64,000 bases of DNA from Polyangiales bacterium (lineage in GTDB: Bacteria; Myxococcota_A; Polyangia; Polyangiales; DASUME01), in the NCBI GenBank assembly GCA_046598735.1, contig JBKJIA010000075.1, positions 5,930 to 69,929 on the forward strand, in the 5' to 3' direction. This document shows positions 6,809 to 53,607 of this stretch, in pieces; the first letter of the stretch is position 1; each line of letters opens with the position of its first letter. The notes beneath the pieces are model-generated. The model worked only from the letters and a program-made list of their open reading frames with translations. It had not been told where the DNA came from and searched no databases. A program made the position numbers and the translations under genes.

Positions 6809-6824
6809 TGCATGTGTCGTGCCG
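6809..6824 (-). promoter_or_regulatory. candidate sigma-54 (-24/-12) promoter for glsB-like gene
   Basis: Minus strand reads CGGCACG-ACAC-ATGCA with GG-N10-GC spacing. Predicted TSS is about 36 nt upstream of ATG 6762. Confidence 0.5.
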
Positions 6825-6828
6825 CGCC

Positions 6829-6860
6829 CGCGAATGCCTCGCGAATGCCGCACGAATATC
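6829..6860. repeat. three tandem 11-bp-period direct repeats (CGCGAATGCCt / CGCGAATGCCg / CACGAATATCa)
   Basis: Read directly. The repeats abut the -24 element of the glsB-like sigma-54 promoter candidate. Confidence 0.6.
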
Positions 6861-6981
6861 AAATAGCTCAGCCCCTGATGGCAGCGGCTCTCACTGCCGG
6901 CGCTTTGAGCGCGCGCAGAGATCGTGGCGCGCATGCGCAAATCACGCATTCTTGCCGCAGTTGCTTCGCAGGCTCACCCCT

Positions 6982-7782
6982 TCAGCGCTGCATGCACAAG
7001 CGTCCGCCCCGGCTCGGGCCTGCCTCGTTCAAAAATACGTAGACCGTAAAGTCCCCGAATCGGTCGACGCACCACGAGCCGCCTTCCACAACCATCACGC
7101 CCTGGGGCGGCGCGTTGGCCTTGGATGCTTGGGGCTCGTACGTGGTGAACACCCCGTCGCTACCTTGCACGTGAACCGGGCAACCAAGCTCGTCCGCGCA
7201 GGGCGCCGGGGCCGCCAGCCACTCAGCACTATCGAGCTGCAGAACGAAGGTATCGCCTGCCTCCCACGTGCAAACGGGCAACGCCTGAGGCCAAAAAGGT
7301 GTGCCACCCAGGCGAGTGCCGGGCAGCACCTGAAAGGATGCGTCGTCGAGCTCGAGGAAATGATCGGCGTCAAAGAACTGCTTCAGCTGCTCGGGAGCCA
7401 CGCCGTCCTCACGCTCACTCCATCCGGTGACGACTAGGTAAGGGAGCAGGTTGACCTTAGTCATGGCAAAAGAGTGCGTGCGCTCGGCGGCTTTGAGCAC
7501 GAACACCGCGTTGGTTCCCACGTCCGGTTCCCATACTTCGCAGGAACCGGGGTCACTGAGGCACCAGAACACGAACATGCAGTCACCCTCCGCACCGAGC
7601 CGGAGTCGATCCGGATGGTGCGCGAGCTGACACACGAAGGACATGGCCGCCCCGCAGCGACTGCACACGGGCCAGCGCGCCTCGGGAAGACCCCAAGGCA
7701 AACCGCCGAAATGATCCCCTGGCGAGCTTGCCGGACCGTCGTCTAGCCAGCCGGGCGCGAGTGTGGGGACGAAGTAGCGCAT
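6982..7782 (-). CDS. DUF1963 (YwqG-like) family protein
   Basis: FGGLPWGLPEARWPVCSRCGAAMSFVCQL resembles the DUF1963 signature. 266 aa. Confidence 0.55.
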   Translation of the reverse strand: MRYFVPTLAPGWLDDGPASSPGDHFGGLPWGLPEARWPVCSRCGAAMSFVCQLAHHPDRLRLGAEGDCMFVFWCLSDPGSCEVWEPDVGTNAVFVLKAAERTHSFAMTKVNLLPYLVVTGWSEREDGVAPEQLKQFFDADHFLELDDASFQVLPGTRLGGTPFWPQALPVCTWEAGDTFVLQLDSAEWLAAPAPCADELGCPVHVQGSDGVFTTYEPQASKANAPPQGVMVVEGGSWCVDRFGDFTVYVFLNEAGPSRGGRLCMQR

Positions 7783-7843
7783 GACAGCTCCTAATGAGCG
7801 CGCGCATCTACCACGCGAGCCCCGACGCGCCCAATGTTATGCG

Positions 7844-7859
7844 TGGCCCCTGTCTTGCT
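7844..7859 (+). promoter_or_regulatory. candidate sigma-54 promoter
   Basis: TGGCCC-CTGTC-TTGCT, one mismatch to TGGCAC-N5-TTGCW. Predicted TSS falls at about 7870, immediately at ATG 7871. Confidence 0.5.
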
Positions 7860-17493: not shown

Positions 17494-17509
17494 TGCATGG
17501 AACGTGCCG
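17494..17509 (-). promoter_or_regulatory. candidate sigma-54 promoter for DUF4398/OmpA operon
   Basis: Minus strand reads CGGCACG-TTCC-ATGCA with correct GG-N10-GC spacing. It lies about 187 nt upstream of ATG 17296 and just downstream of the adjacent EBP gene. Confidence 0.5.
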
Positions 17510-17615: not shown

Positions 17616-18977
17616 TCATTCGACGCCGTAGCTCTTGAGCTTGCGATACAAAGTACGCCGATCGAAGCCGAGAGAAGTCGCCGCCTGGGTCTTACTTCCA
17701 TTCAACGCTTGCAGTACTTGAAGGATGTAGCGCCGTTCGACTTCTTCCATCGGTAGAAGCTCAAGCGGATTCTCGAGCGGCAAAACGAAGTTCTTTCCTT
17801 GAAATTCGCTGATGTACTCGGGCAAATCTTGGACGGTAATGCAGTCGCCCTGGGTCAGGGCTACGGCTCGCTCCATGCAGTTCTGAAGCTCGCGTACGTT
17901 GCCGGGCCAGGTATAAGTAAGCAGCTTCTCTGCGGCGGATGCATCGAGCCCGGATAGCTGCTTCTTGGAATTTCGCACGTAGTGCTGGATGAAATGCTCT
18001 GCGAGCAAGAGCACGTCGTTGCCGCGTGCGCGCAAGGGGGGCATGTGAATGCGGATTACGTTAATCCGATAGTAGAGGTCCTCGCGAAAGCGCTGCTCTG
18101 AAACTTCGCTCTCTAGATCGCGGCTGGTTGCGGAAATGACGCGCGCATCGAAGGGCTGCTCGCGATCGGCGCCCACGGGTCGTACCTTACGCTCTTGCAA
18201 CGAACGCAGCAGTTTCACCTGAGTCGCGAGCGGCATCTCCCCTATCTCATCCAGGAACAACGTGCCCCCGTTCGCTTGGATGAACAGACCCTTACGGCTC
18301 GCCCTCGCGTCGGTAAACGCGCCGCGCTCATGACCGAATAGCTCGCTTTCGAGCATCGAGTCCGGAACGGCCGCACAATTGAACGCCACGAGCGGCCCTG
18401 ATTTACGCGGCCCACTTTGGTGCAACGCTCGCGCAACCAACTCCTTGCCCGTGCCGCTTTCGCCAGTGATGAGCACGGTCGCATCGGTATCGGCCAGTCG
18501 CGCGAGCATCTCGTAGACCTCTTGCATCGCCGGGCTTTTGCCGATCATGTCGGCAGGAGGCCGGTGGCGCGCCACGACGTCTCGGAGGTGCTTGTTCTCT
18601 TCTTTCAGTTGCCGATGCTCGAGTGCGCGCGTCAGCGTCAGCAAGAGCTCGGGAAGCTGAATGGGCTTGGAAATGAAGTCATAGGCGCCCGCGCGAATGG
18701 CCGCCACCGCCGTCTCCATGCTGCCAAAAGCGGTCACTAAGATCACGGGCAAATTGGGCCAGCCCGCATGCACACGGCGACACAGCTCGATGCCCGTCAT
18801 GCCAGGCATGTTCAAATCCGTGATCACCGCATCGAACTCCTCACGTTCGAGCACGAGCAGGCCACTCGTTCCTGAATGGGCAGACACCACCTCGTAGTCG
18901 CGATGACCCAGCAAGGTACTGATCACCTCGCAGACGGCGGTGTCATCATCGATCAGAAGCAGCCTAGCTTTCGTCAC
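17616..18977 (-). CDS. sigma-54-dependent response regulator (NtrC family: REC-AAA+-HTH)
   Basis: Receiver D-box, Walker A GESGTGKE, GAFTDA loop, ESELFGHE and a C-terminal Fis-type HTH. Confidence 0.9.
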   Translation of the reverse strand: MTKARLLLIDDDTAVCEVISTLLGHRDYEVVSAHSGTSGLLVLEREEFDAVITDLNMPGMTGIELCRRVHAGWPNLPVILVTAFGSMETAVAAIRAGAYDFISKPIQLPELLLTLTRALEHRQLKEENKHLRDVVARHRPPADMIGKSPAMQEVYEMLARLADTDATVLITGESGTGKELVARALHQSGPRKSGPLVAFNCAAVPDSMLESELFGHERGAFTDARASRKGLFIQANGGTLFLDEIGEMPLATQVKLLRSLQERKVRPVGADREQPFDARVISATSRDLESEVSEQRFREDLYYRINVIRIHMPPLRARGNDVLLLAEHFIQHYVRNSKKQLSGLDASAAEKLLTYTWPGNVRELQNCMERAVALTQGDCITVQDLPEYISEFQGKNFVLPLENPLELLPMEEVERRYILQVLQALNGSKTQAATSLGFDRRTLYRKLKSYGVE

Positions 18978-20085
18978 TGTCGCCGCCCTTCAAGCCGTGC
19001 TTCGGAAGGTAAACCGTAAACGAAGCGCCCTGCCCCAGCTGACTCTCTACCTGAATCCAACCCTCATGCTCGCGTGCGATGCCCTGCGCCACGGACAAGC
19101 CCAGACCCGTACCGCCATCCGCGCTTTTGGTTGAAAAGAAGGGCTCGAACACTTGCCCTATCGACTCTGGCGCAATGCCGACGCCACGATCGGTCACGTC
19201 GATGCACACGTAATCGCGCACCTTACCCTCCGGATCATCGATAGGAGCTCTCGCTTCATCGCGAACACGAACCGTCAGGGTGCCGCCGTTGGGCATCGCT
19301 TGAACGCCGTTCATGACAAGGTTGACGATCACTTGGAGAAGCTTGTCCGCGTCGCCATCGATCTCGATGGCGGGCTCTGCCAACTCGACATGGGTGTTGG
19401 TTCGATGCTTCTTCGAGATGTGCTCAGACAACATCAGTGCCTTACGCACCACGGATACCAGATCGAGACGAGAAATCTTGGCGGGCTGCATGCGCGCAAA
19501 GGATAGAATTTCGCCGATGATACGCGTCATGCGCCGCGATTGCTCGACGATCACCGACGCGCTCTGTTGCACCTCCTGGGGCGTCATCGAGTCACCTGAC
19601 AGGATAAGCTGAGCGCGCAGCTCGATCACGTTGAGCGGGTTACCAAGCTCGTGCGCAACAGAGGAGGCAAGCCTACCCAAGGTGGCGATGCGATCTGAGT
19701 GTCTTAGCTGGTCTAGCGCTGCGATGTGCGCCTCGGCCGTAAGCTGGGCCGCTTGTAGCTGATCACACATGGTGTCCATCTCGAACGCCAGGCTCCCGAT
19801 CTCGTCACGCCGTTCCAAGCCCAAACGGTTGCTGAAGTCTCCGGAGCCAACCGCCTTGGCCATCACCACGAGCCTACGAATCGGCCTGAAGACTGCGTAG
19901 TGCGCCACGCCGGTAGCGATCAAGCCTACGCCAAGGATCAACACGCTCATGACGATCAGACTCGCGCGCTGCGCCTCGAGCATGAAGAACGCCACGCAGC
20001 CCATGGCTAGCACGGCCAATAACCACAGCACGAACTTCGTTTCGAGGTCCATGCGGTCGTTCCAAGCGGACAATAGGCTGTTCAC
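18964..20085 (-). CDS. sensor histidine kinase (2 TM, HAMP, HisKA, HATPase)
   Basis: H-box SVAHELGNPL and G-boxes GTGLGLSVA. Overlaps the downstream EBP gene by 14 nt. Confidence 0.85.
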   Translation of the reverse strand: MNSLLSAWNDRMDLETKFVLWLLAVLAMGCVAFFMLEAQRASLIVMSVLILGVGLIATGVAHYAVFRPIRRLVVMAKAVGSGDFSNRLGLERRDEIGSLAFEMDTMCDQLQAAQLTAEAHIAALDQLRHSDRIATLGRLASSVAHELGNPLNVIELRAQLILSGDSMTPQEVQQSASVIVEQSRRMTRIIGEILSFARMQPAKISRLDLVSVVRKALMLSEHISKKHRTNTHVELAEPAIEIDGDADKLLQVIVNLVMNGVQAMPNGGTLTVRVRDEARAPIDDPEGKVRDYVCIDVTDRGVGIAPESIGQVFEPFFSTKSADGGTGLGLSVAQGIAREHEGWIQVESQLGQGASFTVYLPKHGLKGGDSDES

Positions 20086-21220: not shown

Positions 21221-21362
21221 GACTCGTTTTCGTAGGTAGGGCGAGCGAGCACCCTGCAGGGCGCGCGTCGCTGTGCTGTGCGAAGAGTCCTGCCTGCGAT
21301 CTGGATGGGCAAGGGCACCAGCCGGTGAGCCGCGCGCAGATCCTTCGCAAGCTTGAGCGAGG

Positions 21363-21377
21363 GCGCAGCGATTGCGC
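21363..21377. promoter_or_regulatory. palindrome GCGCA-GCGAT-TGCGC (candidate EBP binding site)
   Basis: Perfect 5+5 inverted arms, 42 bp upstream of the -24 element at 21419. A degenerate second copy (GCGCA-GAATC-CGCGA) lies at 21385..21399, 22 bp away centre to centre. Confidence 0.45.
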
Positions 21378-21418: not shown

Positions 21419-21434
21419 TGGCACCAAGTTTGCG
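21419..21434 (+). promoter_or_regulatory. candidate sigma-54 promoter ahead of the cco/cbb3 cluster
   Basis: TGGCAC-CAAGT-TTGCG, a full match to TGGCAC-N5-TTGC. Predicted TSS is at about 21445. Confidence 0.55.
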
Positions 21435-32746: not shown

Positions 32747-32885
32747 GCAGCCCATCCAGTCACGCAAGACTCGCGCTGCGACTACGAACCTTACTGTGAC
32801 TGGGCACGCCATCCTGTGATGGGGGCAGCGGCACCGCGCACGGCCGCAACCGTGCATCGCCGGTTTCAGCGCGAGCCCGGCCTCT

Positions 32886-32901
32886 TGGCGCGGCTCCTGC
32901 A
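32886..32901 (+). promoter_or_regulatory. candidate sigma-54 promoter for USP-CBS-USP genes
   Basis: TGGCGC-GGCTC-CTGCA with correct GG-N10-GC spacing and two mismatches. Lies 72-87 nt upstream of GTG 32973. Confidence 0.45.
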
Positions 32902-34940: not shown

Positions 34941-36397
34941 GGGGAATTCCTTTCGCTTGGATGATCGGATTGGGGCTCACCATCCTCGGCAAAGGCACCC
35001 GTCAGGCCCCACTCCTTGAGGCGATACTGAATCTTACGACGGCTGATGCCAAGCATCTCGGCGGCTCGTGCAGTCGAACCGTCAACGGCTTCCAAGGTCT
35101 GCAGGATGGCCATGCGCTCGAGCTCCGCCATGGCAACGCCAGGGATGAGCAGGCTCGCCTCCTGGAGAGTCTCGCCTCTAGCGCCTGGCAAAAGCTCAGG
35201 TCCGATCTGGGGACCGCGACACATCACCACGGCCCGCTCCATCGCGTTCTCGAGCTCGCGCACGTTACCGGGCCAGGGGTAAGCTAGAAGAGCACGCAAC
35301 GCATCGTCGCTGAAGCCTTGGATGGTGCGAGCGTTCTCGGCCGTGAAGCGACGCAGGAAGTGCTGCGCCAGCAAAGGAATGTCGCTCCTACGCACGCGCA
35401 GGGGCGGCACCTCGAGCTGCACGACATTCAGGCGGTAGAACAGGTCCTCGCGAAACGCGCCATTCTTGACTCTTTCCTTCAGGTCGCGATTGCTCGCAGC
35501 AACGATGCGAACGTCAACCGTAAGGGTCTCGTTGCCGCCTACACGCTCAAACTGCTTCTCCTGCAGGAAGCGCAACAGCTTGATCTGAATAGAGGGTGGG
35601 ATCTCGCTCACCTCATCGAGGAATAGGGTGCCACCATCCGCTTGCTTAAAGCGCCCCTCCCGACGCCCGGTTGCGCCGGTGAACGCGCTCTTCTCGTGAC
35701 CGAAGAGCTCTGATTCGAGCAGGCTCTCTGCGAGCGCTGCACAGTTCAAACGGACGAATGGTTTGTTCCTGCGCGGAGAATTCTGGTGGATCGCCGCCGC
35801 AATCAGCTCCTTGCCCGTGCCGCTCTCGCCATGGATCAACACGGTAGCGCGACTGGGCGCCACCTGCGCTATCGTCTTGACGAGCTGCTGCATGGACGGG
35901 TGATCGCCGAGGATGTTGCCCATGCTGAATCGTTCATCAAGACGCTTTCTAAGTTCGCTCGCCTCCCGCGACAGCTTGGCCTTTTCACACGCGCGACCCA
36001 CCAACGCGGAAACCGCATCGAGGTCGAGCGGCTTGGTAAGGTAGTTCTCCGCGCCGGCTTGAATGGCCCGCACTGCGGTATCGATGGATCCAAACGCTGT
36101 CATCACCAAGAAGGAAGCGTGTGGAACGCGGGGCTTACCCATTTCGAGCAGGCCAAGCCCATCGAGCACGGGCATCTTGAGATCAGTCAGCACCACATCG
36201 GGCCCAAAGGACTCGAGCATCTCGAGCGCCTGCTGGCCGTCCGCTGCCACGTCCGTGACGTAACCTTCGTCGCGCAACAGCTCTGCCAAGGCATTGCGTG
36301 CGTTGGCTTCGTCATCGACGACCAGCACACGACCTCGATCGCCGTTCAAAGGAGGAGCGGACTCGACAACATGGGGCATGGCTCGCGAGGCTTGCAT
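34937..36397 (-). CDS. sigma-54-dependent response regulator (NtrC family), paralog A
   Basis: REC (VLVVDDEANARNA...LTDLKMPVLDG), AAA+ (GESGTGKE, GAFTGA-type loop, ESELFGHEK) and a Fis HTH. The start may be the internal ATG at 36379. Confidence 0.9.
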   Translation of the reverse strand: MQASRAMPHVVESAPPLNGDRGRVLVVDDEANARNALAELLRDEGYVTDVAADGQQALEMLESFGPDVVLTDLKMPVLDGLGLLEMGKPRVPHASFLVMTAFGSIDTAVRAIQAGAENYLTKPLDLDAVSALVGRACEKAKLSREASELRKRLDERFSMGNILGDHPSMQQLVKTIAQVAPSRATVLIHGESGTGKELIAAAIHQNSPRRNKPFVRLNCAALAESLLESELFGHEKSAFTGATGRREGRFKQADGGTLFLDEVSEIPPSIQIKLLRFLQEKQFERVGGNETLTVDVRIVAASNRDLKERVKNGAFREDLFYRLNVVQLEVPPLRVRRSDIPLLAQHFLRRFTAENARTIQGFSDDALRALLAYPWPGNVRELENAMERAVVMCRGPQIGPELLPGARGETLQEASLLIPGVAMAELERMAILQTLEAVDGSTARAAEMLGISRRKIQYRLKEWGLTGAFAEDGEPQSDHPSERNSP

Positions 36398-36414: not shown

Positions 36415-36430
36415 AGCAAAGCCCGTTCCA
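36415..36430 (-). promoter_or_regulatory. candidate sigma-54 promoter for EBP-A/USP operon
   Basis: Minus strand reads TGGAAC-GGGCT-TTGCT, one mismatch. Predicted TSS at about 36404 favours the ATG 36379 start. Confidence 0.5.
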
Positions 36431-36459: not shown

Positions 36460-36474
36460 GCGCAAATGGTGCGC
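36460..36474. promoter_or_regulatory. palindrome GCGCA-AATGG-TGCGC (candidate EBP site)
   Basis: Perfect arms. Lies between EBP-A and the divergent sigma-factor gene, 30 bp beyond the -24 element. Confidence 0.45.
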
Positions 36475-36533
36475 GAGAGACCGTCGACGGTGAAAGACCT
36501 GCGCGTACCCGTCAAACGAGCGGTCTCCCGACG

Positions 36534-37421
36534 ATGGCGAAACCGCGGGTACTCATAGGGACGTCCGTCGTTGGCACAGCCGCTGCACAGAGGTCGGCGG
36601 AGGTGAGCGTGTCTGCAAACGACTACGACTGGGGACGGTACCGACAAAGCGCGAGCGAAAAGCCGCTGCTCGATGCCTCCCGTGAGCGCGCGCTCCTTGA
36701 ACGCGCCAAGCGAGGCGACCGCCAAGCGATGTCGGAGCTCGTCGACAGCCATCAGCGGTTGGTCGTTCAAATCGCTTCGCGGTATTCCCGTGAAGGCTTG
36801 AGCGCCCACGACCTCATGGCCGAAGGCATGCTTGGGCTGCTCGAAGCGACCCTACGCTTCGACCTCGCGCGTGAGTCGCGCTTTGCAAGTTATGCCACGT
36901 GGTGGGTGCGAGCTTATGTGCGCAGGCACGCGCTTCAGAATCGGCGCATCGTGGGTATGCCCAACTCCCGCGGTGCCCGCATCGCGGCCTCGCGCATACG
37001 CAGCACGGAACGTGGGCTCACTCAAGCCCTGGGACGTCCACCGTCTCGATCTGAGATTGCTCAGGCCCTGGAAGTTTCGGAGCAAGATGTGGAGCTGGTG
37101 CTGCAGGCGCTATCGGCGCGAGACACCTTACTGTTTCAAGGAGAGGCCGATGCCACGTTCGAGCTTCCTGACGCCAGCATGGGCCCCGAGGAGGCACTGG
37201 CAGACGCCGAGTTGCGCGCCGAACGCGCCTGCTTCGTGCACGAAGCATTCGAAGACCTGAGCGGACGCGAGCAAGCCGTCGTGCGCGGTCACCTCTATTC
37301 GGAGGATAGTCGCAGCCTCGCTGAAATCGGCCGCGGACTGGGCGTATCTCGACAGCGCGCCGGGCAAATTCTCGCGGGCGCACGCGAAAAACTCAGGGCA
37401 AGACTTGCAAGAGTTGCCTAG
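36534..37421 (+). CDS. sigma-70 family alternative sigma factor (regions 2, 3 and 4; group-3-like)
   Basis: Region 2 (HQRLVVQIASRY...DLMAEGMLGLLEA..RFD...FASYATWWVRAYV) and region 4 HTH (RSLAEIGRGLGVSRQRAGQI). Start is ATG 36534 in ORF 36294..37421. Confidence 0.8.
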   Translation: MAKPRVLIGTSVVGTAAAQRSAEVSVSANDYDWGRYRQSASEKPLLDASRERALLERAKRGDRQAMSELVDSHQRLVVQIASRYSREGLSAHDLMAEGMLGLLEATLRFDLARESRFASYATWWVRAYVRRHALQNRRIVGMPNSRGARIAASRIRSTERGLTQALGRPPSRSEIAQALEVSEQDVELVLQALSARDTLLFQGEADATFELPDASMGPEEALADAELRAERACFVHEAFEDLSGREQAVVRGHLYSEDSRSLAEIGRGLGVSRQRAGQILAGAREKLRARLARVA

Positions 37422-39591: not shown

Positions 39592-39607
39592 TGGCACAAC
39601 GCCTGCA
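39592..39607 (+). promoter_or_regulatory. candidate sigma-54 promoter for Rieske oxygenase gene
   Basis: TGGCAC-AACGC-CTGCA, one mismatch. Predicted TSS is about 53 nt upstream of ATG 39671. Confidence 0.55.
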
Positions 39608-41582: not shown

Positions 41583-41598
41583 CGCAAGGGCAGTGCCA
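41583..41598 (-). promoter_or_regulatory. candidate sigma-54 promoter for CBS gene
   Basis: Minus strand reads TGGCAC-TGCCC-TTGCG, a full match to TGGCAC-N5-TTGC. Confidence 0.6.
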
Positions 41599-41711
41599 GG
41601 GCCATCAAGTGGGAGCGTGCGCGGTTGGCTCGTTCCTTGCGCTCCTCGACGACACGTACGATGGAGCCTACAAGTAAGGGCGCCGTCACAACTCAAAAAA
41701 AGGAGTCCACC

Positions 41712-42838: not shown

Positions 42839-44413
42839 CTAGGCCGCAATGTAGAAACGTGCGATCGTGCCGCCACCCTCGCGCGCCACGAGCTCGATCT
42901 CGCCGCCATGCTGCGCGACGATCTTACGGACGATGGCAAGGCCGAGGCCGGTGCCACCCTGCTTGCTGGTCACGAAAGGTTGGAAGGCCTCGTCGATCAC
43001 CGCAGCGGAGACGCCGGGACCGTCGTCACAGACAGCGATCGATACGCCACCTTGTTCGCGCGGCTGAGCTTGGATTTCCACGTGGCCATAACCCCGCTCG
43101 GATAACGCCTCGATGGCATTACCAAGTAAATTGATCACCACCTGTTTCAGGCGATCCGCGTCCGCACGCATACTCAGCGTGGGCTCGGATACGCGAATCG
43201 TGAGGGTCACGCCCACGCTCTGGGCAAGGGGCTGTTTGAGCGTGACAACGGACTCGAGCAGCTCTGACACGGAGCAGGCCCGCCTATCGAGTTGGCGGGG
43301 CCGCGCGAGGTTCAAGAAGTCGTCGAGCAAAACAGACAGCCTATCGAGCTCGGCGCGCACGAGCTCCGCGGGCTCCACGACTTGCTTGCTCAGCGCGGGG
43401 CTCGCAGCAGACATGCCCGCACTCGCAGGATCCACCGCGCGTCGCGCGCGCCGGATCAACAGCTCGAGCTGAAGCTTGGCCGCATTGAGCGGGTTGCGAA
43501 TTTCGTGGGCTAAGCTCGTGGTGAGCGTGCCCATCACTGCCATCGCTTCGGTCTCCGCAGTCTTACGCTCGAGCTCCAAGCGCGCCGTGATGTCGATCCC
43601 TACGGCTAGCACGAGCGAGTCCGAACCCGAGCGTCCTTCCATGCTCGCGAGCGATGCGTGCGCTGTGGTCCTTACTATTCCGCCTGCAGGTGTCTGTTCC
43701 TTCATGCGCGTCTGCAACGGCATGAACGTCCAGCGAATCACACGGGCGCGCTTACCTCCGTCATGGTGACCTTCGTGATCGCGGACAGGCTCGCCCGCGA
43801 TCGCTTGCTCGATCGCTTGTGCCAACTTGGGTGCACAATCAGCGCGAGCGAGCGAGGTGAACTCGCGTCCCACCAAGGCCGACTGGCTCACGCCTAAACG
43901 CTCCGCCGCAAAGCGATTGGCAAAGCGGATGGTTCCTTCGCGGCTCAAGCCCAGAATGCAGGCCTCTACCGTTTCGACCATGCTGCGATACAGCGCTTCC
44001 GAAGCTAACAAGCGCTGACTGAGCGCCTGCTTTTCGCGCTTGAGCGCAACTTGCGCCAGGGCTCGCTTGACCAGCGTGACGAGATGCTCAGGCTCGAAGG
44101 GCTTGGGTATGTACGCATATACGCCACGCCGAATCGCTTCGATCGCGCTGTGCAAGGTCGCATTGCCTGTCATCAACAGGATCTCACCGTAAGGGCTGTA
44201 GCTGCGCAATCGCGGCAGCAGATCGAGCCCGCTTTCGTTGCCAGCGAGACCGATGTCGACGATCGCAAGATCGAAACCGCCATCGGACGCAGCAAGATTG
44301 GCGGAGGCAGCATCCGCTGCGAACACGACTTCGATGCCCTCATCTTGCAGCATTTCGGCGATGTTTTCGGCCAGCGCCAGGTTGTCTTCCACCACCAAGA
44401 CGCGCTCGTTCAC
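42839..44413 (-). CDS. hybrid sensor kinase (REC-PAS-HisKA-HATPase)
   Basis: N-terminal receiver, PAS-like middle region, H-box SLAHEIRNPL and GTGLGLAIV. Confidence 0.85.
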   Translation of the reverse strand: MNERVLVVEDNLALAENIAEMLQDEGIEVVFAADAASANLAASDGGFDLAIVDIGLAGNESGLDLLPRLRSYSPYGEILLMTGNATLHSAIEAIRRGVYAYIPKPFEPEHLVTLVKRALAQVALKREKQALSQRLLASEALYRSMVETVEACILGLSREGTIRFANRFAAERLGVSQSALVGREFTSLARADCAPKLAQAIEQAIAGEPVRDHEGHHDGGKRARVIRWTFMPLQTRMKEQTPAGGIVRTTAHASLASMEGRSGSDSLVLAVGIDITARLELERKTAETEAMAVMGTLTTSLAHEIRNPLNAAKLQLELLIRRARRAVDPASAGMSAASPALSKQVVEPAELVRAELDRLSVLLDDFLNLARPRQLDRRACSVSELLESVVTLKQPLAQSVGVTLTIRVSEPTLSMRADADRLKQVVINLLGNAIEALSERGYGHVEIQAQPREQGGVSIAVCDDGPGVSAAVIDEAFQPFVTSKQGGTGLGLAIVRKIVAQHGGEIELVAREGGGTIARFYIAA

Positions 44414-45135
44414 GCGGCGTCTCCGCGCAGCGTGGCGAGAGCATTCACCAGGGCATCAGGAGCAAAAGGCTTCACCATTAGTTGCGCGCGCGTACCGAGC
44501 TCGGCAATCAATGGTGTGTCGTGCTCATCCACATCGAAGCCCGTCACCAAGATGACTGACAGATTGGAAGTGCGGGCAAGCTCCGCCGCGAAGTCCGCAC
44601 CATCGCCGTCGGGGAGTCGGATGTCGATGATCGCAGCCACTAAGGCTTTTCCGAGCACGCGGCGCGCGCTTGCCAATGAATGGGCGCAGTGCACGCGATA
44701 CCCGCTTTCGGTCAGCGCTTCGGACAAGGCCGCGCTGAGCTCCAGATCATCGTCCACGAACAGCACGTCGCGATTGTCGCCACCTTCCTGTTCGAGTGCC
44801 TGCAGAAGCTCAGGTAAGGGTACTGGCTTCATCAGCACCCTGCGCACACCGGCCGCTAGTGCAGAGGCGATGCGATCGTCTTCCGTATAGGCCGTCATCA
44901 GAATGAAAAGCGTGTGCGGATGGGTCTCACGCAGGCGCCGATGCAGACCGACTCCGTCGAGCCCCGGCATGCGTACGTCGAGCAAGGCCACGTCGAATTT
45001 CTTGTCTTCGGATTCGGCCAGCGCACGCGCGGGGTCATCGAACACGCATACCTCGTAGCCCTCAAGCTCGAGTATTTCGCCCAAGTCCTCGGCCAAGGCT
45101 CGGTTGTCATCCACGATCAAGGCTCGCCGCGCCAT
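44410..45135 (-). CDS. response regulator with two tandem receiver domains (REC-REC, no output domain)
   Basis: Two CheY-like modules (ALIVDDNRAL...LLDVRMPGLDG and VLFVDDDLEL...IIDIRLPDGDG). Confidence 0.85.
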   Translation of the reverse strand: MARRALIVDDNRALAEDLGEILELEGYEVCVFDDPARALAESEDKKFDVALLDVRMPGLDGVGLHRRLRETHPHTLFILMTAYTEDDRIASALAAGVRRVLMKPVPLPELLQALEQEGGDNRDVLFVDDDLELSAALSEALTESGYRVHCAHSLASARRVLGKALVAAIIDIRLPDGDGADFAAELARTSNLSVILVTGFDVDEHDTPLIAELGTRAQLMVKPFAPDALVNALATLRGDAA

Positions 45136-45138
45136 CAG

Positions 45139-46341
45139 CTACTCCGCAAAAGCCTGGGGAAATCGCACCTCGAAGCGTGCGCCGCCTAAACTACTGCGCA
45201 AGGCGCGAATGTCACCGCCGTGCTTCTCCGCAACACGCCGACATAGCGCAAGCCCCAGCCCAAGCCCGCGCGCACGTGTGGTGGCAAGCGGCTCGAACAA
45301 ACGGTGGCGAAGCTCTTCGGCGATGCCTTCACCCGTGTCCTCGACAGACAAGATCATCGTTGCCGCTTCGCGGGCCACCTGCACACGCACCTTACGGTCT
45401 GCTAGCTCGCTGAGCGCCTGAATGGCGTTGGTCACGAGATTCACGATCAGGTGGCGGAGCTGCTTAACATCCAGCTTGGCGTCGGGCAGATCCGCTGGCA
45501 CGTCGATAGTGATCTCCACCGTATCGCGCAGGGGAACTTCATCGATCACGGAATGTAAGAGTGCTTCGATCGCTACAGGCGCAGTGACAAGCGGTCGATC
45601 GCGGGCCAGCTCGAGCAGGTCGGAAATGATATTAGTACATGCGGTAAGTTGCTCGCCCAAGCGGCGAGTATGCCGCTCGATGCTGCTATCGCCGACGGGA
45701 ATTCGCTTCTTCAACAAATGCAGCGAGGTTTCCATCACGGCCAGCGGGTTACGCAGCTCGTGCCCCACGAAGCCCGCAAGCTGGCCCAGGGTCGCAAGCC
45801 GTTCACTATCGCGGATGCGCGTGGTGTAGTCCTCGGAATAGGTCTGCAGCATGATCGCAAGCTCGAGATCACAGATTTTATCGAGTGCTTGATGTGCAAG
45901 GCTGCGCCGCTCGGCCACAAACTCCGAGCTGTCAACAGCGGTATGCAGGCCCTCACGCACGATGTTCATGGCCCCAAGCACGTACCGTTGATCGAGTTGA
46001 ATGCGTACGTGCGTGCGACCAATTTTTGCGCGCAACCTGAGATAGTCGACGCCATAGACGCCCGACACCACGCCTTCGAGCCACTGCCTCAAAAACGTCT
46101 TCTGACGTTCAATCTGGGGGGTTCCCCCCTTGAATACGGACAAGGCTGTTGGGTTTTGCTGAATCGCCTCATAGAAACGATCGACGATGCCCGCAAAAGC
46201 GGGCTCCACGCTGGGTCGCAAATCCGCGAGCACCTGAGCGTGGGCCTGACTAAACCCCACGTAGCGCTTAAGCTCTTCGAGAAATTCCTCTTCCCACACT
46301 CGGGCAGACGCCTTTCCTGCCTTGATTGACGGCCCTATCAT
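45139..46341 (-). CDS. globin-coupled sensor histidine kinase (protoglobin domain-HisKA-HATPase)
   Basis: N-terminal globin-sensor pattern (FYEAIQQNP...IGRTHVRIQLDQRYVLGA), then H-box FVGHELRNPL and GLGLGLALC. Confidence 0.75.
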   Translation of the reverse strand: MIGPSIKAGKASARVWEEEFLEELKRYVGFSQAHAQVLADLRPSVEPAFAGIVDRFYEAIQQNPTALSVFKGGTPQIERQKTFLRQWLEGVVSGVYGVDYLRLRAKIGRTHVRIQLDQRYVLGAMNIVREGLHTAVDSSEFVAERRSLAHQALDKICDLELAIMLQTYSEDYTTRIRDSERLATLGQLAGFVGHELRNPLAVMETSLHLLKKRIPVGDSSIERHTRRLGEQLTACTNIISDLLELARDRPLVTAPVAIEALLHSVIDEVPLRDTVEITIDVPADLPDAKLDVKQLRHLIVNLVTNAIQALSELADRKVRVQVAREAATMILSVEDTGEGIAEELRHRLFEPLATTRARGLGLGLALCRRVAEKHGGDIRALRSSLGGARFEVRFPQAFAE

Positions 46342-46383: not shown

Positions 46384-46399
46384 TGCAACCTGCGGGCCA
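46384..46399 (-). promoter_or_regulatory. candidate sigma-54 promoter for globin-kinase operon
   Basis: Minus strand reads TGGCCC-GCAGG-TTGCA, one mismatch. Predicted TSS is about 32 nt upstream of ATG 46341, which has a GAAGG RBS. Confidence 0.55.
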
Positions 46400-46604
46400 G
46401 GCCCATGGACGGCCTCGGAAAGAGGCTCACCGCCTGCTGGCGCCCTCTGTGCAGAGAAACGCACGCCCCACCCGGTACGTGTCGGCGTCGGGTTTGCGCG
46501 CTACACCGCCTTGCGATGCAAGGCTTGCGTCTGCAACGGGTACCGACGTACCCAAGCAACGAGCGCTCAATCGAGCACTTTCACTTCAAGAAAAAGGACG
46601 CCCT

Positions 46605-48071
46605 GTGAGCTCGCCGCCATCCTCCTCATCCGCTGCCAGCGTCGCCAACCCGGGAGGGTTTAAAGGACGCGTGCTCGTGGTGGATGACGAAGCCAATGCT
46701 CGCAATGCTTTGGCTGAGCTTCTGCGCGACGAAGGCTACGTCACCGAGGTGGCGGCCGACGGCAGTCAGGCCCTACGCGTCTTGGAATCGTTCGATCCTC
46801 ACGTCGTGCTAACCGATCTGAAGATGCCGGTGCTCGACGGCCTATCACTGCTCGAACAAGGGAAACTCTTAGTACCCCATGCCGCCTTCGTCGTGATGAC
46901 TGCGTTTGCAAGCATCGACACCGCCGTGCAAGCGATCAAGCGCGGAGCGGAAAATTACCTGACCAAACCCCTCGATCTCGACGCCGTGTCCGCACTGGTG
47001 GGACGTGCCTGCGAAAAAGCGTTGCTTTCGCGCGAGATGAGCGAGCTGCGACTCCGGCTCGAGCAGCGCTTCAGCGTGGGCAACATTCTCGGCGATCATC
47101 CTTCGATGCAGCGGCTCCTCAAAAGCGTCGCGCAGGTGGCCCCGAGCCGCGCAACGGTGCTCATCCACGGCGAAAGTGGTACCGGCAAGGAGCTTATCGC
47201 GGCAGCGATCCATCAAAACTCGCCGCGCAAGGATAAGGCTTTCGTGCGCCTCAACTGCGCAGCGCTGGCCGAGAGCCTGCTCGAATCGGAGCTATTCGGC
47301 CACGAAAAAGGCTCCTTTACGGGGGCGGTCACACGTCGCGAAGGTCGCTTCAAGCAGGCCCACGGCGGGACGCTTTTCCTGGACGAGGTCAGCGAGATTC
47401 CCCTTTCGCTGCAAGTCAAACTATTACGCTTCCTGCAAGAAAAGCAGTTCGAGCGCGTGGGCGGCAACGAAACCCTGACGGTCGACGTACGCATCGTCGC
47501 CGCCAGCAATCGCGACCTCAAAGAGCGGATGAAAGACGGTCTGTTTCGCGAGGATTTGTACTATCGGCTGAACGTGGTGCAGGTAGATGTTCCACCCTTG
47601 CGCGTTCGCAAGAGCGATATCCCGCTTTTGGCACAGCACTTCTTGGTCCGCTTTGCGGACGAAAATGGCCGCGACATCACCGGCTTTAGCGACGCAGCGC
47701 TGCGCCTGATCTTGTCTTACAGTTGGCCTGGCAACGTGCGCGAGCTCGAGAACGCGGTCGAGCGCGCAGTCGTCATGTGCGACGGTGAGCAGATCCAACC
47801 TGAGCATTTGCCGATGCACGGCCAGGAGACCATCCGGGATACCGAGCTGCTCATTCCCGGCATCACCATGGCCGAGCTCGAACGCCTAGCGATTCTGCAG
47901 ACGCTGGAGTCGGTGTCCGGTTCCACGGCCAAGGCGGCGGAGCTGCTCGGCATCAGTCGCCGAAAAATCCAATATCGCCTACGCGAGTGGGGGATGGGCG
48001 AGAGCGGCGACGGCGGCGAGGTCACCCATGATCAGGATAGCGCTGACGCGCTCGAATCAGGAGACGACTGA
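46605..48071 (+). CDS. sigma-54-dependent response regulator (NtrC family), paralog B
   Basis: Same architecture as 34937..36397 and about 85% identical over the part compared by eye. Start GTG 46605 (AAGGA RBS) in ORF 46326..48071. Confidence 0.9.
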   Translation: MSSPPSSSSAASVANPGGFKGRVLVVDDEANARNALAELLRDEGYVTEVAADGSQALRVLESFDPHVVLTDLKMPVLDGLSLLEQGKLLVPHAAFVVMTAFASIDTAVQAIKRGAENYLTKPLDLDAVSALVGRACEKALLSREMSELRLRLEQRFSVGNILGDHPSMQRLLKSVAQVAPSRATVLIHGESGTGKELIAAAIHQNSPRKDKAFVRLNCAALAESLLESELFGHEKGSFTGAVTRREGRFKQAHGGTLFLDEVSEIPLSLQVKLLRFLQEKQFERVGGNETLTVDVRIVAASNRDLKERMKDGLFREDLYYRLNVVQVDVPPLRVRKSDIPLLAQHFLVRFADENGRDITGFSDAALRLILSYSWPGNVRELENAVERAVVMCDGEQIQPEHLPMHGQETIRDTELLIPGITMAELERLAILQTLESVSGSTAKAAELLGISRRKIQYRLREWGMGESGDGGEVTHDQDSADALESGDD

Positions 48072-49497: not shown

Positions 49498-49513
49498 TGC
49501 ACGGAGCACGCCA
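49498..49513 (-). promoter_or_regulatory. candidate sigma-54 promoter for CoA-transferase gene
   Basis: Minus strand reads TGGCGT-GCTCC-GTGCA with correct spacing and three mismatches. Predicted TSS is about 27 nt upstream of ATG 49460. Confidence 0.4.
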
Positions 49514-49576: not shown

Positions 49577-49591
49577 GCGCAAATCCTGCGC
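49577..49591. promoter_or_regulatory. palindrome GCGCA-AATCC-TGCGC (candidate EBP site)
   Basis: Perfect arms. Followed by GCGCA-AATCA-TGCCA at 49607..49621 and a GCGCAAAC half-site at 49628. Lies in the divergent region between the CoA-transferase and triple-USP genes. Confidence 0.45.
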
Positions 49592-49701
49592 CCAAAGCCG
49601 CGCACCGCGCAAATCATGCCAATATCTGCGCAAACACGAACATTGCGGGGCGACACCTGGCTTGCGCTTTCCGGTCGCACCAGCGTGTCTATCTCCAAGA
49701 G

Positions 49702-51030: not shown

Positions 51031-51176
51031 GAGCGAGGGAGCGCGACTAAGGGGTCGCGCCTACGAGGAACCATCGGGGTCGCTCAGTGGTGGTCTGGAA
51101 GTAGACGAGTCCCTCATGTTACTCGCTTGGCATGCTTGTTGAGTGTGCGAGGAGCATCGTCGATGCGAGGATAAGT

Positions 51177-52607
51177 ATGGAAAGACTCAGCGGACTGGAT
51201 GCGACTTTTCTCTACGTGGAGACGCCGACCATGCACATGCAGGTCTCGTTGCTCGCACTCCTGGATCCTAGGGAAGCGCCTGGAGGCTACGACCATACCC
51301 GACTCGAAGCCTTGCTCGAACAGCTGGCCTACCAAACCCCTAAGCTACGCCGCAAGCTCGTGCAGGTACCGTTGGGACTCCACCACCCGGTTTGGGTCGA
51401 GGATCCTCACTTTCATCCAGTCCACCATCTCAAGCGGATCGCCTGTCCGCTGCCAGGTGGAACGAAGGAGCTTGCAGATCTGTGCGGTCGCATCAACAGC
51501 ACTCCACTCGATCGTTCACGCCCCTTGTGGGAAATCTGGGTGATCGAGGGCCTCGCACAGGGCCAGTTCGCTCTGCTCGCGAAACTTCACCATTGCCTTG
51601 CGGATGGTATGGCCGGAGCTGGGCTGCTCGCGAGTTTGTTCAGCATGACGAAGGAACCGGCCAAGAGCGCACCCGTGGCATCAACACTGACTGCGCACGA
51701 CGGGATGCCCAGCACGCCCAAGCTCATGCGCGACGCGCTGCTCGATCGTTTGACAGCCTCGCGCCAAATCGGCCGCATCTATGGGCGTACGGCCAAGGCC
51801 CTCGATCTGATTCGAAGCAGACGAAGCGACAGCGAATACCATGCCGGCGCCACTCCCATCTTGGATGTTCCACGCACCCCCTTCAACGCTCCGATCACTG
51901 CCCAACGTTCTGCCGCTTTTGCGCGCGTTTCTCTGGAGGAGGTGCGCGAGATCTGTAAGGTATACTCCGTGAAGGTCAACGACGTGGTGCTCGCACTGTG
52001 CGCCGGTGCGCTGCGTCGCTATCTCGAGCCCAAAGGCGACCTCCCCCTCGCTCCGCTTGTCGCAGCCTGCCCCGTCGCAGTACCCAGGAGCGACATTCAC
52101 GCGCACGGTAGTAACCATGTAGCCGTGATGTTTACCTCCTTGGCCACCAACCTGGAGGACCCTGTGGAAAGGCTCCTCGCCATCCGCAGCACGGCAAGTG
52201 GTGCCAAGGAAGAGCTCCGCACCTTCGGGAACGAGACGATGGGCGACTGGGCCGAGCTTTCATCGCCGGTCCTCTTTACGGCCAGTACCCGGGTCTACTC
52301 TAAGTATCGGCTATCGAGCCTGCACCGTCCGCTCCATAACGTCATGATCTCGAACGTGCCTGGCCCGCCCATGCCCATCTATCTCGATGGGTCGAAGCTT
52401 ACCGCCGCCTACCCCATGGGCCCTGTGATCGAGGGTGCAGGGCTCAACATCACCGTCATGAGCTATGTAGGGCACCTCGACTTTGGGTTTCTTGCCGCTA
52501 CCGCACTGGTGCCGGACCTTTGGCGGCTTGCGGATGCGATCGCACCGAGCTTGGCGGAGCTGCTCGATAGGTCCCGTGCGCGCGTCGAGGTCGACGTCAG
52601 CGTGTGA
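51177..52607 (+). CDS. wax ester synthase / diacylglycerol acyltransferase (WS/DGAT)
   Basis: Catalytic HHCLADG (HHxxxDG), an N-terminal LSGLDATFLY-type motif, and 476 aa from ATG 51177. Confidence 0.85.
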   Translation: MERLSGLDATFLYVETPTMHMQVSLLALLDPREAPGGYDHTRLEALLEQLAYQTPKLRRKLVQVPLGLHHPVWVEDPHFHPVHHLKRIACPLPGGTKELADLCGRINSTPLDRSRPLWEIWVIEGLAQGQFALLAKLHHCLADGMAGAGLLASLFSMTKEPAKSAPVASTLTAHDGMPSTPKLMRDALLDRLTASRQIGRIYGRTAKALDLIRSRRSDSEYHAGATPILDVPRTPFNAPITAQRSAAFARVSLEEVREICKVYSVKVNDVVLALCAGALRRYLEPKGDLPLAPLVAACPVAVPRSDIHAHGSNHVAVMFTSLATNLEDPVERLLAIRSTASGAKEELRTFGNETMGDWAELSSPVLFTASTRVYSKYRLSSLHRPLHNVMISNVPGPPMPIYLDGSKLTAAYPMGPVIEGAGLNITVMSYVGHLDFGFLAATALVPDLWRLADAIAPSLAELLDRSRARVEVDVSV

Positions 52608-52663
52608 GCACGTGGATCCAAACGCGCACTCGCAAGTCTAGCGCCTGAATTCCAAGAGTAAGG

Positions 52664-53536
52664 TCAGCCGGCTTCGGCGTCTTGCGCTATCAGGTCGTCG
52701 CACAGCAAACTTGGGTGCAGCAGCATTTGCTCCTCGATGTCCATGTCTTGGCGGAAAGTCGTGATCAGGTGCGCGAGCGCTGCTGCCATGGCCGCAGGTG
52801 GCTCCGACGGCTCGTCGAACTGGGCCACGATCCGTTCGAGCGATCGCCTTTGCTCAACGTGCTCGGCGATCAGACGATCAGAGCGCACCTTCCCGAACGC
52901 GTCCAGCGCTGCAAGCGCGGGCGCGAGCAGGCGATTTTCGAGCTCCATGTGGCGACACAGACCCGTGTAGAGTTGGTAAGCGATGCCTCGCAATGACAGG
53001 ACCTCCTGATCGCCAAAGCCACCGCCCGAAAGGATGCGCTGCGCGTGTTCTTCGGAACGAAGAAGCAAGGCTCGGATATTGACGTGCTCGCTCAAAATCA
53101 CACTGCGGACCTGGCTGGGTGTCATTTGCAATGATTCGGGCTGATCCGCCTCGATCAGCTCGGCCAGGACCCTGATCGCGTCGTTCTTCGTGAAGAGGCC
53201 GACGAGACGCTTGCCTTGCATCACAACCGCGCAGTCGGCCTTGTGAGCGGCCATGGCACGCGCCGCCCGTGCCACGGGTGTGTCCTCGGTCAAGGTAAGC
53301 GGTTCGGATGTCAATACCTCCTCGATGGTAACCTCTGCCAAGTCCAAGTCGAGAGCGCCCACCAACGTGAGGTCGTGCTCCGACAGCACTCCGCTCAACA
53401 CCCCTTCCCGGACCACGGGCAGGTAGCAGATCCCGAGCTCACGCATACGGTGGGAAGCAGCTTCCAGGGTCTGCTCGATGGGGATCGAGTGAGGGGCGAA
53501 CGTCATGTAGTCTCGCACTTGGTATTGGAGCGGCAT
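52664..53536 (-). CDS. CBS-pair protein fused to a hemerythrin-like (HHE cation-binding) domain
   Basis: N-terminal CBS pair. The C-terminal about 140 aa carries spaced H/E/D motifs (SEHVNIR, CRHMELEN, AEHVEQR, DMDIEEQMLLH). AGGAGG RBS. Confidence 0.6.
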   Translation of the reverse strand: MPLQYQVRDYMTFAPHSIPIEQTLEAASHRMRELGICYLPVVREGVLSGVLSEHDLTLVGALDLDLAEVTIEEVLTSEPLTLTEDTPVARAARAMAAHKADCAVVMQGKRLVGLFTKNDAIRVLAELIEADQPESLQMTPSQVRSVILSEHVNIRALLLRSEEHAQRILSGGGFGDQEVLSLRGIAYQLYTGLCRHMELENRLLAPALAALDAFGKVRSDRLIAEHVEQRRSLERIVAQFDEPSEPPAAMAAALAHLITTFRQDMDIEEQMLLHPSLLCDDLIAQDAEAG

Positions 53537-53591
53537 AGGTTCCTCCTAACGTGACAAGACGACATGACAAACGGGTACCATGACCTTAATG

Positions 53592-53607
53592 AGCACGCGC
53601 CGTGCCA
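53592..53607 (-). promoter_or_regulatory. candidate sigma-54 promoter for CBS-hemerythrin gene
   Basis: Minus strand reads TGGCAC-GGCGC-GTGCT with correct spacing. Predicted TSS is about 45 nt upstream of ATG 53536. Confidence 0.55.

Follow-up and report, generated by a model that had tools for sequence, protein, structure and literature searches.

Clustered candidate sigma-54 promoters with NmpR-type activator boxes in a 64-kb window of a Polyangiales genome

At classical NtrC/sigma-54 promoters such as glnAp2, a TGGCAC-N5-TTGCW element is acted upon by a phosphorylated REC-AAA+-HTH activator bound at tandem upstream sites, and the promoter is opened in an ATP-driven step. In Myxococcus xanthus, an NtrC-like activator of this kind, NmpR, belongs to a signalling system that also comprises the protoglobin kinase NmpU, the two-receiver protein NmpT and NmpS, a hybrid kinase with an N-terminal receiver (Bretl et al., 2018, PMC6211767). 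NmpR binds GCGCA-N5-TGCGC boxes with a preferred gap of 14-15 nt between sites S1 and S2 (starts 29-30 nt apart), and the sigma-54 site is required, as its mutation abolishes expression (PMC11841059). The NmpR regulon consists of seven promoters and 23 genes (McAllister et al., 2025, PMC11841059). Its targets are the CBS gene heading the nmpR operon, nmpU-T-S, a USP gene, an operon for a P-type ATPase and cbb3 oxidase, hemN-hemerythrin and pilR; the nmpR operon is autoregulated by NmpR, which also binds the nmpU promoter (PMC11841059). Here we analyse a 64-kb stretch of DNA with 61.5% G+C from a Polyangiales bacterium (contig JBKJIA010000075.1; the whole stretch is referred to as the window), in which an earlier note had listed twelve elements as sigma-54 promoters. 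About 14 convincing sigma-54 promoters lie across 47 kb of the window. That these elements are real sigma-54 (RpoN) promoters, most of them in one regulon, is very probable from the sequence evidence, and the reading proposed earlier is backed by the enrichment in their placement, by NtrC-type activators encoded in the window, by conservation across species and by activator boxes upstream. Rather than a new kind of system, the window appears to hold a larger, clustered version of the known NmpR/sigma-54 oxygen regulon.

Number and placement of the sigma-54 elements

All twelve 16-mers are present at the coordinates and on the strands that the earlier note gave (Table 1). Its description of them as near-consensus applies to eleven, which have at most two mismatches to TGGCAC-N5-TTGCW, but not to 49498, which has three; the full TGGCAC-N5-TTGC match reported for 21419 and 41583 was reproduced, and the leaders put at 0-190 nt correspond to computed 5' untranslated regions (5' UTRs) of 1-187 nt. 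The list was nevertheless incomplete, as it omitted 36572(+), 41626(+) and the weak 46438(+). In all 14 sites retained here GG, T(-14) and GC are invariant, with GG and GC exactly 10 nt apart, while C(-23) occurs in 13, C(-21) in 12 and A(-22) in 9 of them.

In order to assess the background, genes were mapped by codon statistics and annotated with Pfam, and a sigma-54 weight matrix was run over the window with a minimum score of 11 bits. The target zone was defined as intergenic strand-positions with a start codon no more than 300 nt ahead. In the window as a whole the consensus matches number 50, compared with 39 +/- 6 in dinucleotide shuffles, which is not significant (10 of 100 shuffles reach 50), and the bare GG-N10-GC core occurs 992 times, too often for a sharp test, with enrichment at T(-14), C(-23) and A(-22) only (p 6e-4 to 0.05). 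As the raw count is unremarkable, the question becomes one of placement. Fourteen of the 50 consensus matches fall inside the 5.6% of strand-positions that form the target zone (binomial p 4.5e-7). With the first gene map, the weight matrix finds 9 sites in the 6.4 kb of target zone and 15 in the other 121.6 kb (odds ratio (OR) 11, p 1e-6). A conservative map, in which every gene is extended to its longest open reading frame (ORF) and circularity from promoter-guided starts is thereby avoided, gives an OR of 10.8 (p 6e-5), and a map corrected by homologues, with four starts altered on independent homology evidence, places 14 sites in the target zone and 10 elsewhere (OR 23, p 4e-12). A plain IUPAC consensus scan agrees with the weight-matrix result. 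Dinucleotide shuffles of the oriented intergenic segments predict 0.73 +/- 0.85 sites, with a maximum of 4 in 1000 shuffles, against the 14 observed. The comparison of intergenic with genic density that the earlier note had proposed, run within the 64-kb window, therefore finds oriented intergenic DNA 11- to 23-fold denser in sites, and this enrichment confirms the observation beyond chance.

Activator boxes, signalling genes and conservation

Three perfect copies of GCGCA-N5-TGCGC occur in the window, each 44-112 nt upstream of predicted sigma-54 sites. When up to two mismatches are allowed, eight pairs with starts 29-31 nt apart are found, against an expectation of 1.0 and a highest count of 4 over 200 simulations; five of these (21334/21363, 32732/32762, 36460/36490, 49577/49607 and 53681/53711, with starts 29-30 nt apart) lie directly upstream of sites. 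These five intergenic pairs serve seven sites, two pairs being common to divergent promoters. Clear tandem boxes accordingly accompany 21419, 32663, 32886, 36415, 36572, 49498 and 53592, and partial boxes accompany 39592, 41583 and 46384; at 39592 these are a box with one mismatch at 39472 and a half-site 30 nt on, and in the CBS promoter 41583 they are half-sites 20 nt apart, as also seen in the related locus L082. Across 89 related loci, a box with at most one mismatch lies within ~200 nt upstream of 26 of 91 strong sigma-54 matches, compared with 2 of 91 downstream. In L082, paired perfect boxes stand upstream of the CBS promoter and also between divergent sigma-54 sites, where they repeat the layout found here at 36460. 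The boxes at 49577/49607 touch on the annotation of a triple-USP gene, in whose long ORF the first 79 codons are of low complexity and rich in Ala, Asn and His, with the USP fold beginning MVIVYGTD at ATG 49702. We take ATG 49702, rather than 49465 or 49519, as the predicted start and the ORF track as over-extended. The boxes are therefore intergenic, within the 241 nt that separate the triple-USP gene from the CoA-transferase gene; for the triple-USP gene itself, the scan gave no sigma-54 site scoring 8 bits or more.

The window has genes for three activators of the NtrC type (REC-AAA+-HTH), EBP-A, EBP-B and EBP-C, with Sigma54_activat E-values from 2e-73 to 3e-72 and the GAFTGA-type loops SAFTGA, GSFTGA and GAFTDA. 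EBP-A and EBP-B share 80% identity and a near-identical HTH. EBP-C (Sigma54_activat 3e-72, Response_reg, HTH_8), the carrier of the GAFTDA loop, is 42% identical to EBP-A. Members of the EBP-A family form more than 100 clusters (P0025-P0143), 69-89% identical along their whole length, which come from soil and sediment metagenomes and from metagenome-assembled genomes (MAGs) of Myxococcaceae, Polyangiales and Sandaracinaceae; this unusually strong conservation is compatible with, and no proof of, orthology to MXAN_4240 (NmpR). Divergent from EBP-B lies an operon for a protoglobin histidine kinase (45139-46341), a dual-receiver protein (44410-45135) and a REC-PAS-HK hybrid kinase (42839-44413). 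The globin domain of the first matches AfGcHK (5ohe) with an E-value of 1.7e-24, and architectures as well as gene order equal those described for NmpU/T/S (PMC6211767). In locus L081 (GCA_038257655.1), the orthologous protoglobin kinase at 4982-6183 is split into three ORFs (Protoglobin, HisKA, HATPase_c), which indicates either frameshifts, and thus a pseudogene, or assembly errors.

Conservation was followed through the homologues of the window's genes. Homologues of the CBS-pair gene behind 41583, the predicted counterpart of mxan_4236, are found on contigs L081 and L083 (GCA_038257655.1) and L082 (JGI metagenome), each of which carries a similar island with genes for EBP, protoglobin kinase, receiver proteins, PAS kinase, CBS, USPs, MgtC/DUF4010, sigma factor and cco functions. 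A -24/-12 element precedes the CBS gene in all three (16-mers TGGCACTGCCCTTGCG, TGGCACCGACCTTGCG and TGGCATTCCCCTTGCG, with a varying spacer), and in these islands sigma-54 elements also stand before USPs, EBP and the kinase operon. An alignment scan of metagenomes with the CBS protein yielded 46 homologues (25-44% identical) for which upstream DNA was available. In 21/46, the 200 nt preceding the gene contain a coding-strand site that scores 10 bits or more, mostly 11-70 nt from the start, compared with 0/46 in an in-gene control of equal length; the opposite strand has a site in 5/46, probably reflecting divergent promoters. More broadly, upstream sites of at least 11 bits are present for 17/42 homologues of the site-fronted window genes and for 10/37 homologues of USP/CBS paralogues that are operon-internal here, compared with 2/84 homologues of unrelated or operon-internal control genes. 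At the level of single promoters, such a site precedes 5/8 homologues of the first USP of the 32973 operon, and three of the four closest EBP-A homologues (L082, L157 and L116) have upstream sites of 11-15 bits. The 16-mer at 46384 recurs identically in L081, at the identical distance before its kinase operon, with more distant homologues scoring below 11 bits, and one of two distant CBS-hemerythrin homologues has a 10.2-bit site. In addition, sigma-54 sites with NmpR boxes occur before a beta-CASP/metallo-beta-lactamase RNase-like gene (L081 1672-1687; L082 18617-18632 and 16161-16176), with LOG-family (Lysine_decarbox) genes close by. Both gene types are absent from the window's island, which suggests that lineages differ in the content of the regulon.

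Homology with the M. xanthus system suggests the following sequence of events. At high oxygen the heme kinase would phosphorylate and thereby silence the hybrid kinase; as oxygen falls it would cease to do so, and the hybrid kinase would then phosphorylate EBP-A and EBP-B. The phosphorylated activator would oligomerise on the tandem GCGCA-N5-TGCGC boxes ~60-140 bp upstream and remodel the closed complex that the sigma-54 holoenzyme forms at the -24/-12 element, with ATP-driven opening. Genes switched on in this manner would include those for the cbb3 oxidase and its maturation, the USP and CBS proteins and the CBS-hemerythrin protein; further predicted targets are the CoA-transferase, the RCCR-like catabolic operon, the Rieske oxygenase, the alternative sigma factor and the signalling genes themselves. 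The promoters 6809 and 7844 would be served by other activators. No rpoN is encoded within the 64-kb window; rpoN is present in the Myxococcota that have been studied and is essential in M. xanthus.

Table 1. Predicted sigma-54 elements, activator boxes and regulatory genes of the window (TSS, transcription start site).
Feature	Position	Strand	Bits	Sequence	Context
Element 6809	6809..6824	-	12.4	CGGCACGACACATGCA	Intergenic, co-oriented; faces GlsB/YeaQ-type (Transgly_assoc, Pfam) gene 6496-6762; predicted 5' UTR ~36 nt
Element 7844	7844..7859	+	11.7	TGGCCCCTGTCTTGCT	Ends 11 nt short of ATG 7871 of conserved hypothetical gene 7871-8365; predicted TSS ~7870
Element 17494	17494..17509	-	12.3	CGGCACGTTCCATGCA	106 nt downstream of the histidine kinase/EBP-C pair; 197 nt before DUF4398 / DUF4398-OmpA genes 16044-17296 (Pfam)
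Element 21419	21419..21434	+	13.9	TGGCACCAAGTTTGCG	Before DsbD_2-ccoI(P-type ATPase)-ccoS-ccoNO-ccoQ-ccoP-ccoG cluster 21450-29260; predicted TSS ~21445, 5 nt before ATG 21450
Element 32663	32663..32678	-	11.3	CGGCATCGGCTTTGCA	Before RCCR-like / acyl-CoA dehydrogenase / FAD monooxygenase operon 29351-32606 (Pfam); predicted 5' UTR ~46 nt
Element 32886	32886..32901	+	12.0	TGGCGCGGCTCCTGCA	Before USP-CBS-USP operon 32973-34403; predicted 5' UTR ~61 nt; ribosome-binding site GAAGGAGG
Element 36415	36415..36430	-	14.9	TGGAACGGGCTTTGCT	Before EBP-A/USP; predicted TSS ~36404
Element 36572 (additional)	36572..36587	+	14.9	TGGCACAGCCGCTGCA	Intergenic, co-oriented; before sigma-70-family sigma factor gene 36609-37421 (regions 2, 3, 4; Pfam), then USP and MgtC/DUF4010
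Element 39592	39592..39607	+	16.1	TGGCACAACGCCTGCA	Highest score in window; before Rieske oxygenase gene 39671-40813; predicted 5' UTR ~53 nt
Element 41583	41583..41598	-	13.3	TGGCACTGCCCTTGCG	28 nt before ATG 41554 of CBS-pair gene 40817-41554
Element 41626 (additional candidate)	41626..41641	+	12.1	TGGCTCGTTCCTTGCG	Before small ORF 41712-41981 and ABC ATPase gene
Element 46384	46384..46399	-	12.6	TGGCCCGCAGGTTGCA	42 nt before ATG 46341 of nmpU-like operon
Element 46438 (weak candidate)	46438..46453	+	9.1	TGGCGCCCTCTGTGCA	217 nt before EBP-B
Element 49498 (weaker)	49498..49513	-	10.2	TGGCGTGCTCCGTGCA	37 nt before GTG 49460 of acetyl-CoA hydrolase/transferase gene
Element 53592	53592..53607	-	13.9	TGGCACGGCGCGTGCT	55 nt before ATG 53536 of CBS-hemerythrin gene (Pfam), which has an AGGAGG ribosome-binding site
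Tandem boxes	21334..21377			GCGCAGATCCTTCGC, GCGCAGCGATTGCGC	Starts 29 nt apart, 14-nt gap; centres ~-104 and ~-75 of 21419
Tandem boxes	32732..32776				1 and 2 mismatches; starts 30 nt apart; common to 32663(-) and 32886(+)
Tandem boxes	36460..36504			GCGCAAATGGTGCGC	Perfect box and 2-mismatch box 30 nt on; between 36415(-) and 36572(+)
Tandem boxes	49577..49621			GCGCAAATCCTGCGC	Perfect box and 2-mismatch box 30 nt on; upstream of 49498(-)
Three NmpR-like boxes	53638..53725				At 53638, 53681 and 53711, 2 mismatches each; last two 30 nt apart; upstream of 53592(-)
HAMP histidine kinase and EBP-C	17616..20052	-			Kinase 18964-20052; NtrC-type activator EBP-C 17616-18977 (Pfam)
EBP-A	34937..36328	-			NmpR-like NtrC-family activator, REC-AAA+-HTH (Pfam); then USP 34503-34940
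nmpU-nmpT-nmpS-like operon	42839..46341	-			Pfam
EBP-B	46671..48071	+			Second NmpR-like activator (Pfam); divergent from nmpU-like operon

Individual promoters and gene starts

From promoter positions, the earlier note had argued that two coding sequences are shorter than the ORF track gives. For the CBS-pair gene this is borne out, since its homologues measure 240-245 aa and align from ATG 41554, and AGGAGG precedes this codon. For EBP-A the argument stands only in part. The predicted TSS of 36415 lies 7 nt upstream of ATG 36397, a leader too short for a ribosome-binding site, which argues against that start; 36379, however, is not specifically favoured, and we rejected it as the start because the source annotation (463 aa, equal to GTG 36328, with GAGG upstream) and the point at which similarity to its paralogue EBP-B begins favour GTG 36328. 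A promoter at this position would amount to autoregulation of EBP-A.

On the other side of the same boxes, 36572 is predicted to leave a 5' UTR of just 11 nt to GTG 36609, so that this start of the sigma factor gene is uncertain. Together with the NmpR boxes, 36572 would establish a cascade from sigma-54 to a sigma-70-family factor. For the cco cluster behind 21419, the Pfam DsbD_2 match needs a start at or upstream of ~21477. Element 41626 is placed back to back with 41583 and partly coincides with an NmpR-like half-site, and its reverse complement is an NmpR box with two mismatches, which makes its assignment ambiguous; it is identical in L081, which is uninformative at such divergence.

The catabolic operon behind 32663 has a homologue in L004, an Aridibacter sp. 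MAG (Acidobacteriota), with a 14.5-bit site 183 nt upstream. The same 21-kb locus of L004 contains homologues of the RCCR-like protein (35% identity), the acyl-CoA dehydrogenase (55%), the FAD monooxygenase (50%) and the Rieske oxygenase (58%), and the four may together encode a single catabolic pathway that is passed between phyla.

The hypothetical gene behind 7844 (P0018, a family without a Pfam domain) is annotated at source from GTG 7937 (142 aa). Homologues keep 22 residues upstream of this codon (M..RKWCVLLAV...VSVWAD), and the start is therefore placed at ATG 7871; the gene is real, with an N-terminus conserved from there. In homologue loci L164-L169 (four distinct sequences), whose contigs carry family members 46-71% identical, (C/G)GG(C/T)C(C/T)C-N4-TTGCA is kept 11-16 nt before the ATG. 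From the position of the element relative to ATG 7871, the predicted transcript is leaderless, with a conserved geometry. Element 17494 probably belongs to a separate two-component system formed by the HAMP histidine kinase and EBP-C; we assign it to this adjacent pair because its position is between the pair and the DUF4398/OmpA genes and no NmpR box accompanies it.

Several further matches were rejected as promoters. The 11.2-bit match at 13692-13707(+), AGGCACCTGCGTTGCA, sits between an aldo-keto reductase and a TetR gene, points antisense into the latter and serves no gene; it is probably a chance match, or possibly an antisense promoter. GC or GG is missing from 51128(+) and 33907(+), and 49606(-), at 11.1 bits, coincides with an NmpR-type box. 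The window also encodes multiheme cytochromes, for which 53636(+), at 11.4 bits, was considered as a cytochrome-gene promoter; it overlaps the first NmpR-like box of its group, and the box is the more likely reading. Four intragenic sense-strand sites of 12-13.5 bits, at 2358-2373(-), 25662-25677(+), 36273-36288(-) and 63173-63188(-), are compatible with the chance background. Intragenic sigma-54 promoters have been reported for M. xanthus Nla28 and pilR, according to work cited in PMC11841059.

Alternative explanations and known systems

A number of points weigh against reading all of these elements as sigma-54 promoters. The weight matrix is an approximation of the Barrios 1999 compilation and is not curated, although neither the consensus-pattern test nor the conservation tests hinge on its details; the related metagenomic loci were gathered through genes of the island and do not form a random genome sample; and EBP-A and EBP-B were likened to NmpR (MXAN_4240) by the description of its architecture. 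The candidate at 6809 draws on the enrichment statistics and is without comparative support: it has no tandem NmpR boxes, and its single distant homologue lacks a site. Likewise, 17494 has no NmpR boxes, no inverted repeat was found upstream of it and comparative support is absent; a search for an activator palindrome upstream of both 17494 and 6809 gave nothing convincing. None of 117 Rieske oxygenase homologues, including an 86%-identical Polyangiales copy behind a LysR-like gene, has a site, the scan of a genome collection having returned mostly gammaproteobacterial, non-syntenic homologues without sigma-54 sites, and 39592 is therefore specific to this locus. The match at 46438 is weak and doubtful as a promoter, with sites of at least 10 bits upstream of 0/6 EBP-B homologues, and 49498 is weak as well, with its low score and three mismatches, although this is offset by the tandem boxes upstream of it, one of them perfect, and by a 65%-identical homologue in L116 that has a 15.9-bit site. 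The predicted leaders of 1 nt at 7844, 5 nt at 21419 and 11 nt at 36572, without Shine-Dalgarno sequences, are unusual. Matches to this organism were found in soil metagenomes only, its closest named relative being an uncultured Polyangiales MAG, and in one soil metatranscriptome run two 151-nt contigs of depth 2 mapped to the 1.9-kb stretch tested, from which no 5' ends could be called.

The explanation that competes best holds that only the boxed and cross-species-conserved subset of ~8-10 sites works, and that 6809, 17494, 39592, 41626, 46438 and perhaps 49498 are look-alikes, scoring activator boxes or places of unproductive holoenzyme binding. It can invoke the 0/117 result for 39592, the lack of boxes and comparative data for 6809 and 17494, the overlap of 41626, 49606 and 53636 with NmpR-like boxes, and the observation that half of the NmpR promoters predicted in silico in M. 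xanthus bound NmpR (PMC11841059). The background implies ~0.7 false sites in the promoter zone; expected false positives of at least 11 bits thus stay below one and cannot explain five or six. Moreover, 39592 combines the top score in the window with a 1-mismatch box 120 nt upstream, and 17494 lies exactly between a histidine kinase/activator pair and neighbouring genes in the classic layout. We consider this explanation unlikely, and hold that most of the listed sites are, with high probability, functional sigma-54 promoters.

Alternatively, a different DNA-binding protein could have its operator here, or the element could be a promoter of sigma-70-family or ECF type with a likeness to the -24/-12 consensus. 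The link to RpoN in this organism comes from sequence, the island contains a sigma-70-family sigma factor gene (36609-37421), and the NmpR box and the sigma-54 consensus both have GCA...TGC cores. These cores differ in spacing, however, with 5 nt between GCA and TGC in NmpR half-sites compared with 7 nt in the sigma-54 element, and the element is asymmetric, always faces its gene, keeps GG and GC invariant at 10-nt spacing around a variable spacer and occurs alongside AAA+ activators specific to sigma-54; in M. xanthus it is the corresponding site whose mutation abolishes expression (PMC11841059). This makes the explanation very improbable. Chance matches of GG-N10-GC type in G+C-rich DNA, selected by reading intergenic regions by eye, would fit the unexceptional total, the common core and the ~10 sites of at least 11 bits inside genes or pointing away from them, but are scarcely credible in view of the enrichment by orientation and position, the failure of any of 1000 shuffles to reach one third of the observed count, the conservation upstream of homologues and not of control genes, and the co-occurrence with upstream boxes.

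With the elements read as sigma-54 promoters, the short leaders raise a tentative idea, which we do not favour, namely that part of this lineage's sigma-54 promoters may be built for leaderless or near-leaderless mRNAs. If true, enhancer-dependent transcription would be coupled to Shine-Dalgarno-independent translation as part of a low-oxygen or stress response; no earlier description of such a combination emerged from a literature search on leaderless sigma-54 transcripts. With regard to sigma-54 biology at large the locus is an expected finding, in which the possible leaderless transcripts alone would be unusual. Its interest lies in extending a regulon known experimentally, since 2025, from M. 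xanthus only to Polyangiales and to many uncultured soil Myxococcota, where activator box, spacing and sigma-54 promoter architecture are conserved together. The larger list of predicted targets hints at the way in which these aerobes adjust respiration and metabolism as oxygen falls, and the analysis supplies testable promoter-box pairs and corrects four gene starts.

Among known systems, classical glnAp2-type promoters share the GG-N10-GC element, the REC-AAA+-HTH activator and the tandem sites, and differ in their signal (nitrogen, as opposed to oxygen as proposed here), in the sequence of the box and in lacking the 5' UTRs of 1-11 nt predicted for some promoters here. The DosR/DevR system of Mycobacterium tuberculosis is an analogue and not a homologue, likewise with a heme kinase for low oxygen, many USPs, a CBS-pair protein and a WS/DGAT-type acyltransferase nearby. 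DosR, a regulator of the NarL type, works at sigma-70 promoters and is served by kinases of the GAF-heme and not the globin type. For the WS/DGAT gene of the window (51177-52607), the scan gave no sigma-54 site that reaches 9 bits and has an intact GC. A comparison with DosR has also been drawn for M. xanthus (PMC11841059). The AfGcHK system of Anaeromyxobacter sp. Fw109-5 shares the homologous globin sensor (5ohe) and a partner with two receiver domains. Work on AfGcHK has been biochemical and structural, and we know of no sigma-54 promoters described for it. A CBS-pair gene adjoins the AfGcHK kinase operon in Anaeromyxobacter (PMC11841059), as it does the kinase operon here.

The closest counterpart is NmpRSTU of M. 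xanthus, with which the locus shares the four protein architectures, the U-T-S gene order and, in front of sigma-54 promoters, the tandem box with its gap of 14-15 nt. Target classes common to both are the CBS gene (41583), USP-CBS-USP (32886), DsbD_2-ccoI-cbb3 (21419), CBS-hemerythrin (53592), the nmpU-like operon (46384) and EBP-A (36415). In contrast to M. xanthus, the system described here, from a Polyangiales MAG, is known from its sequence, no pilR or hemN link was seen in the window, the activator is duplicated (80% identity) and the CBS gene lies outside the activator's operon. At least 10 candidate promoters are gathered in ~33 kb, compared with seven scattered on the M. xanthus chromosome, and the predicted targets additionally include the RCCR-like/ACAD/monooxygenase operon, the Rieske oxygenase, the CoA-transferase and the unit of sigma factor, USP and MgtC/DUF4010.

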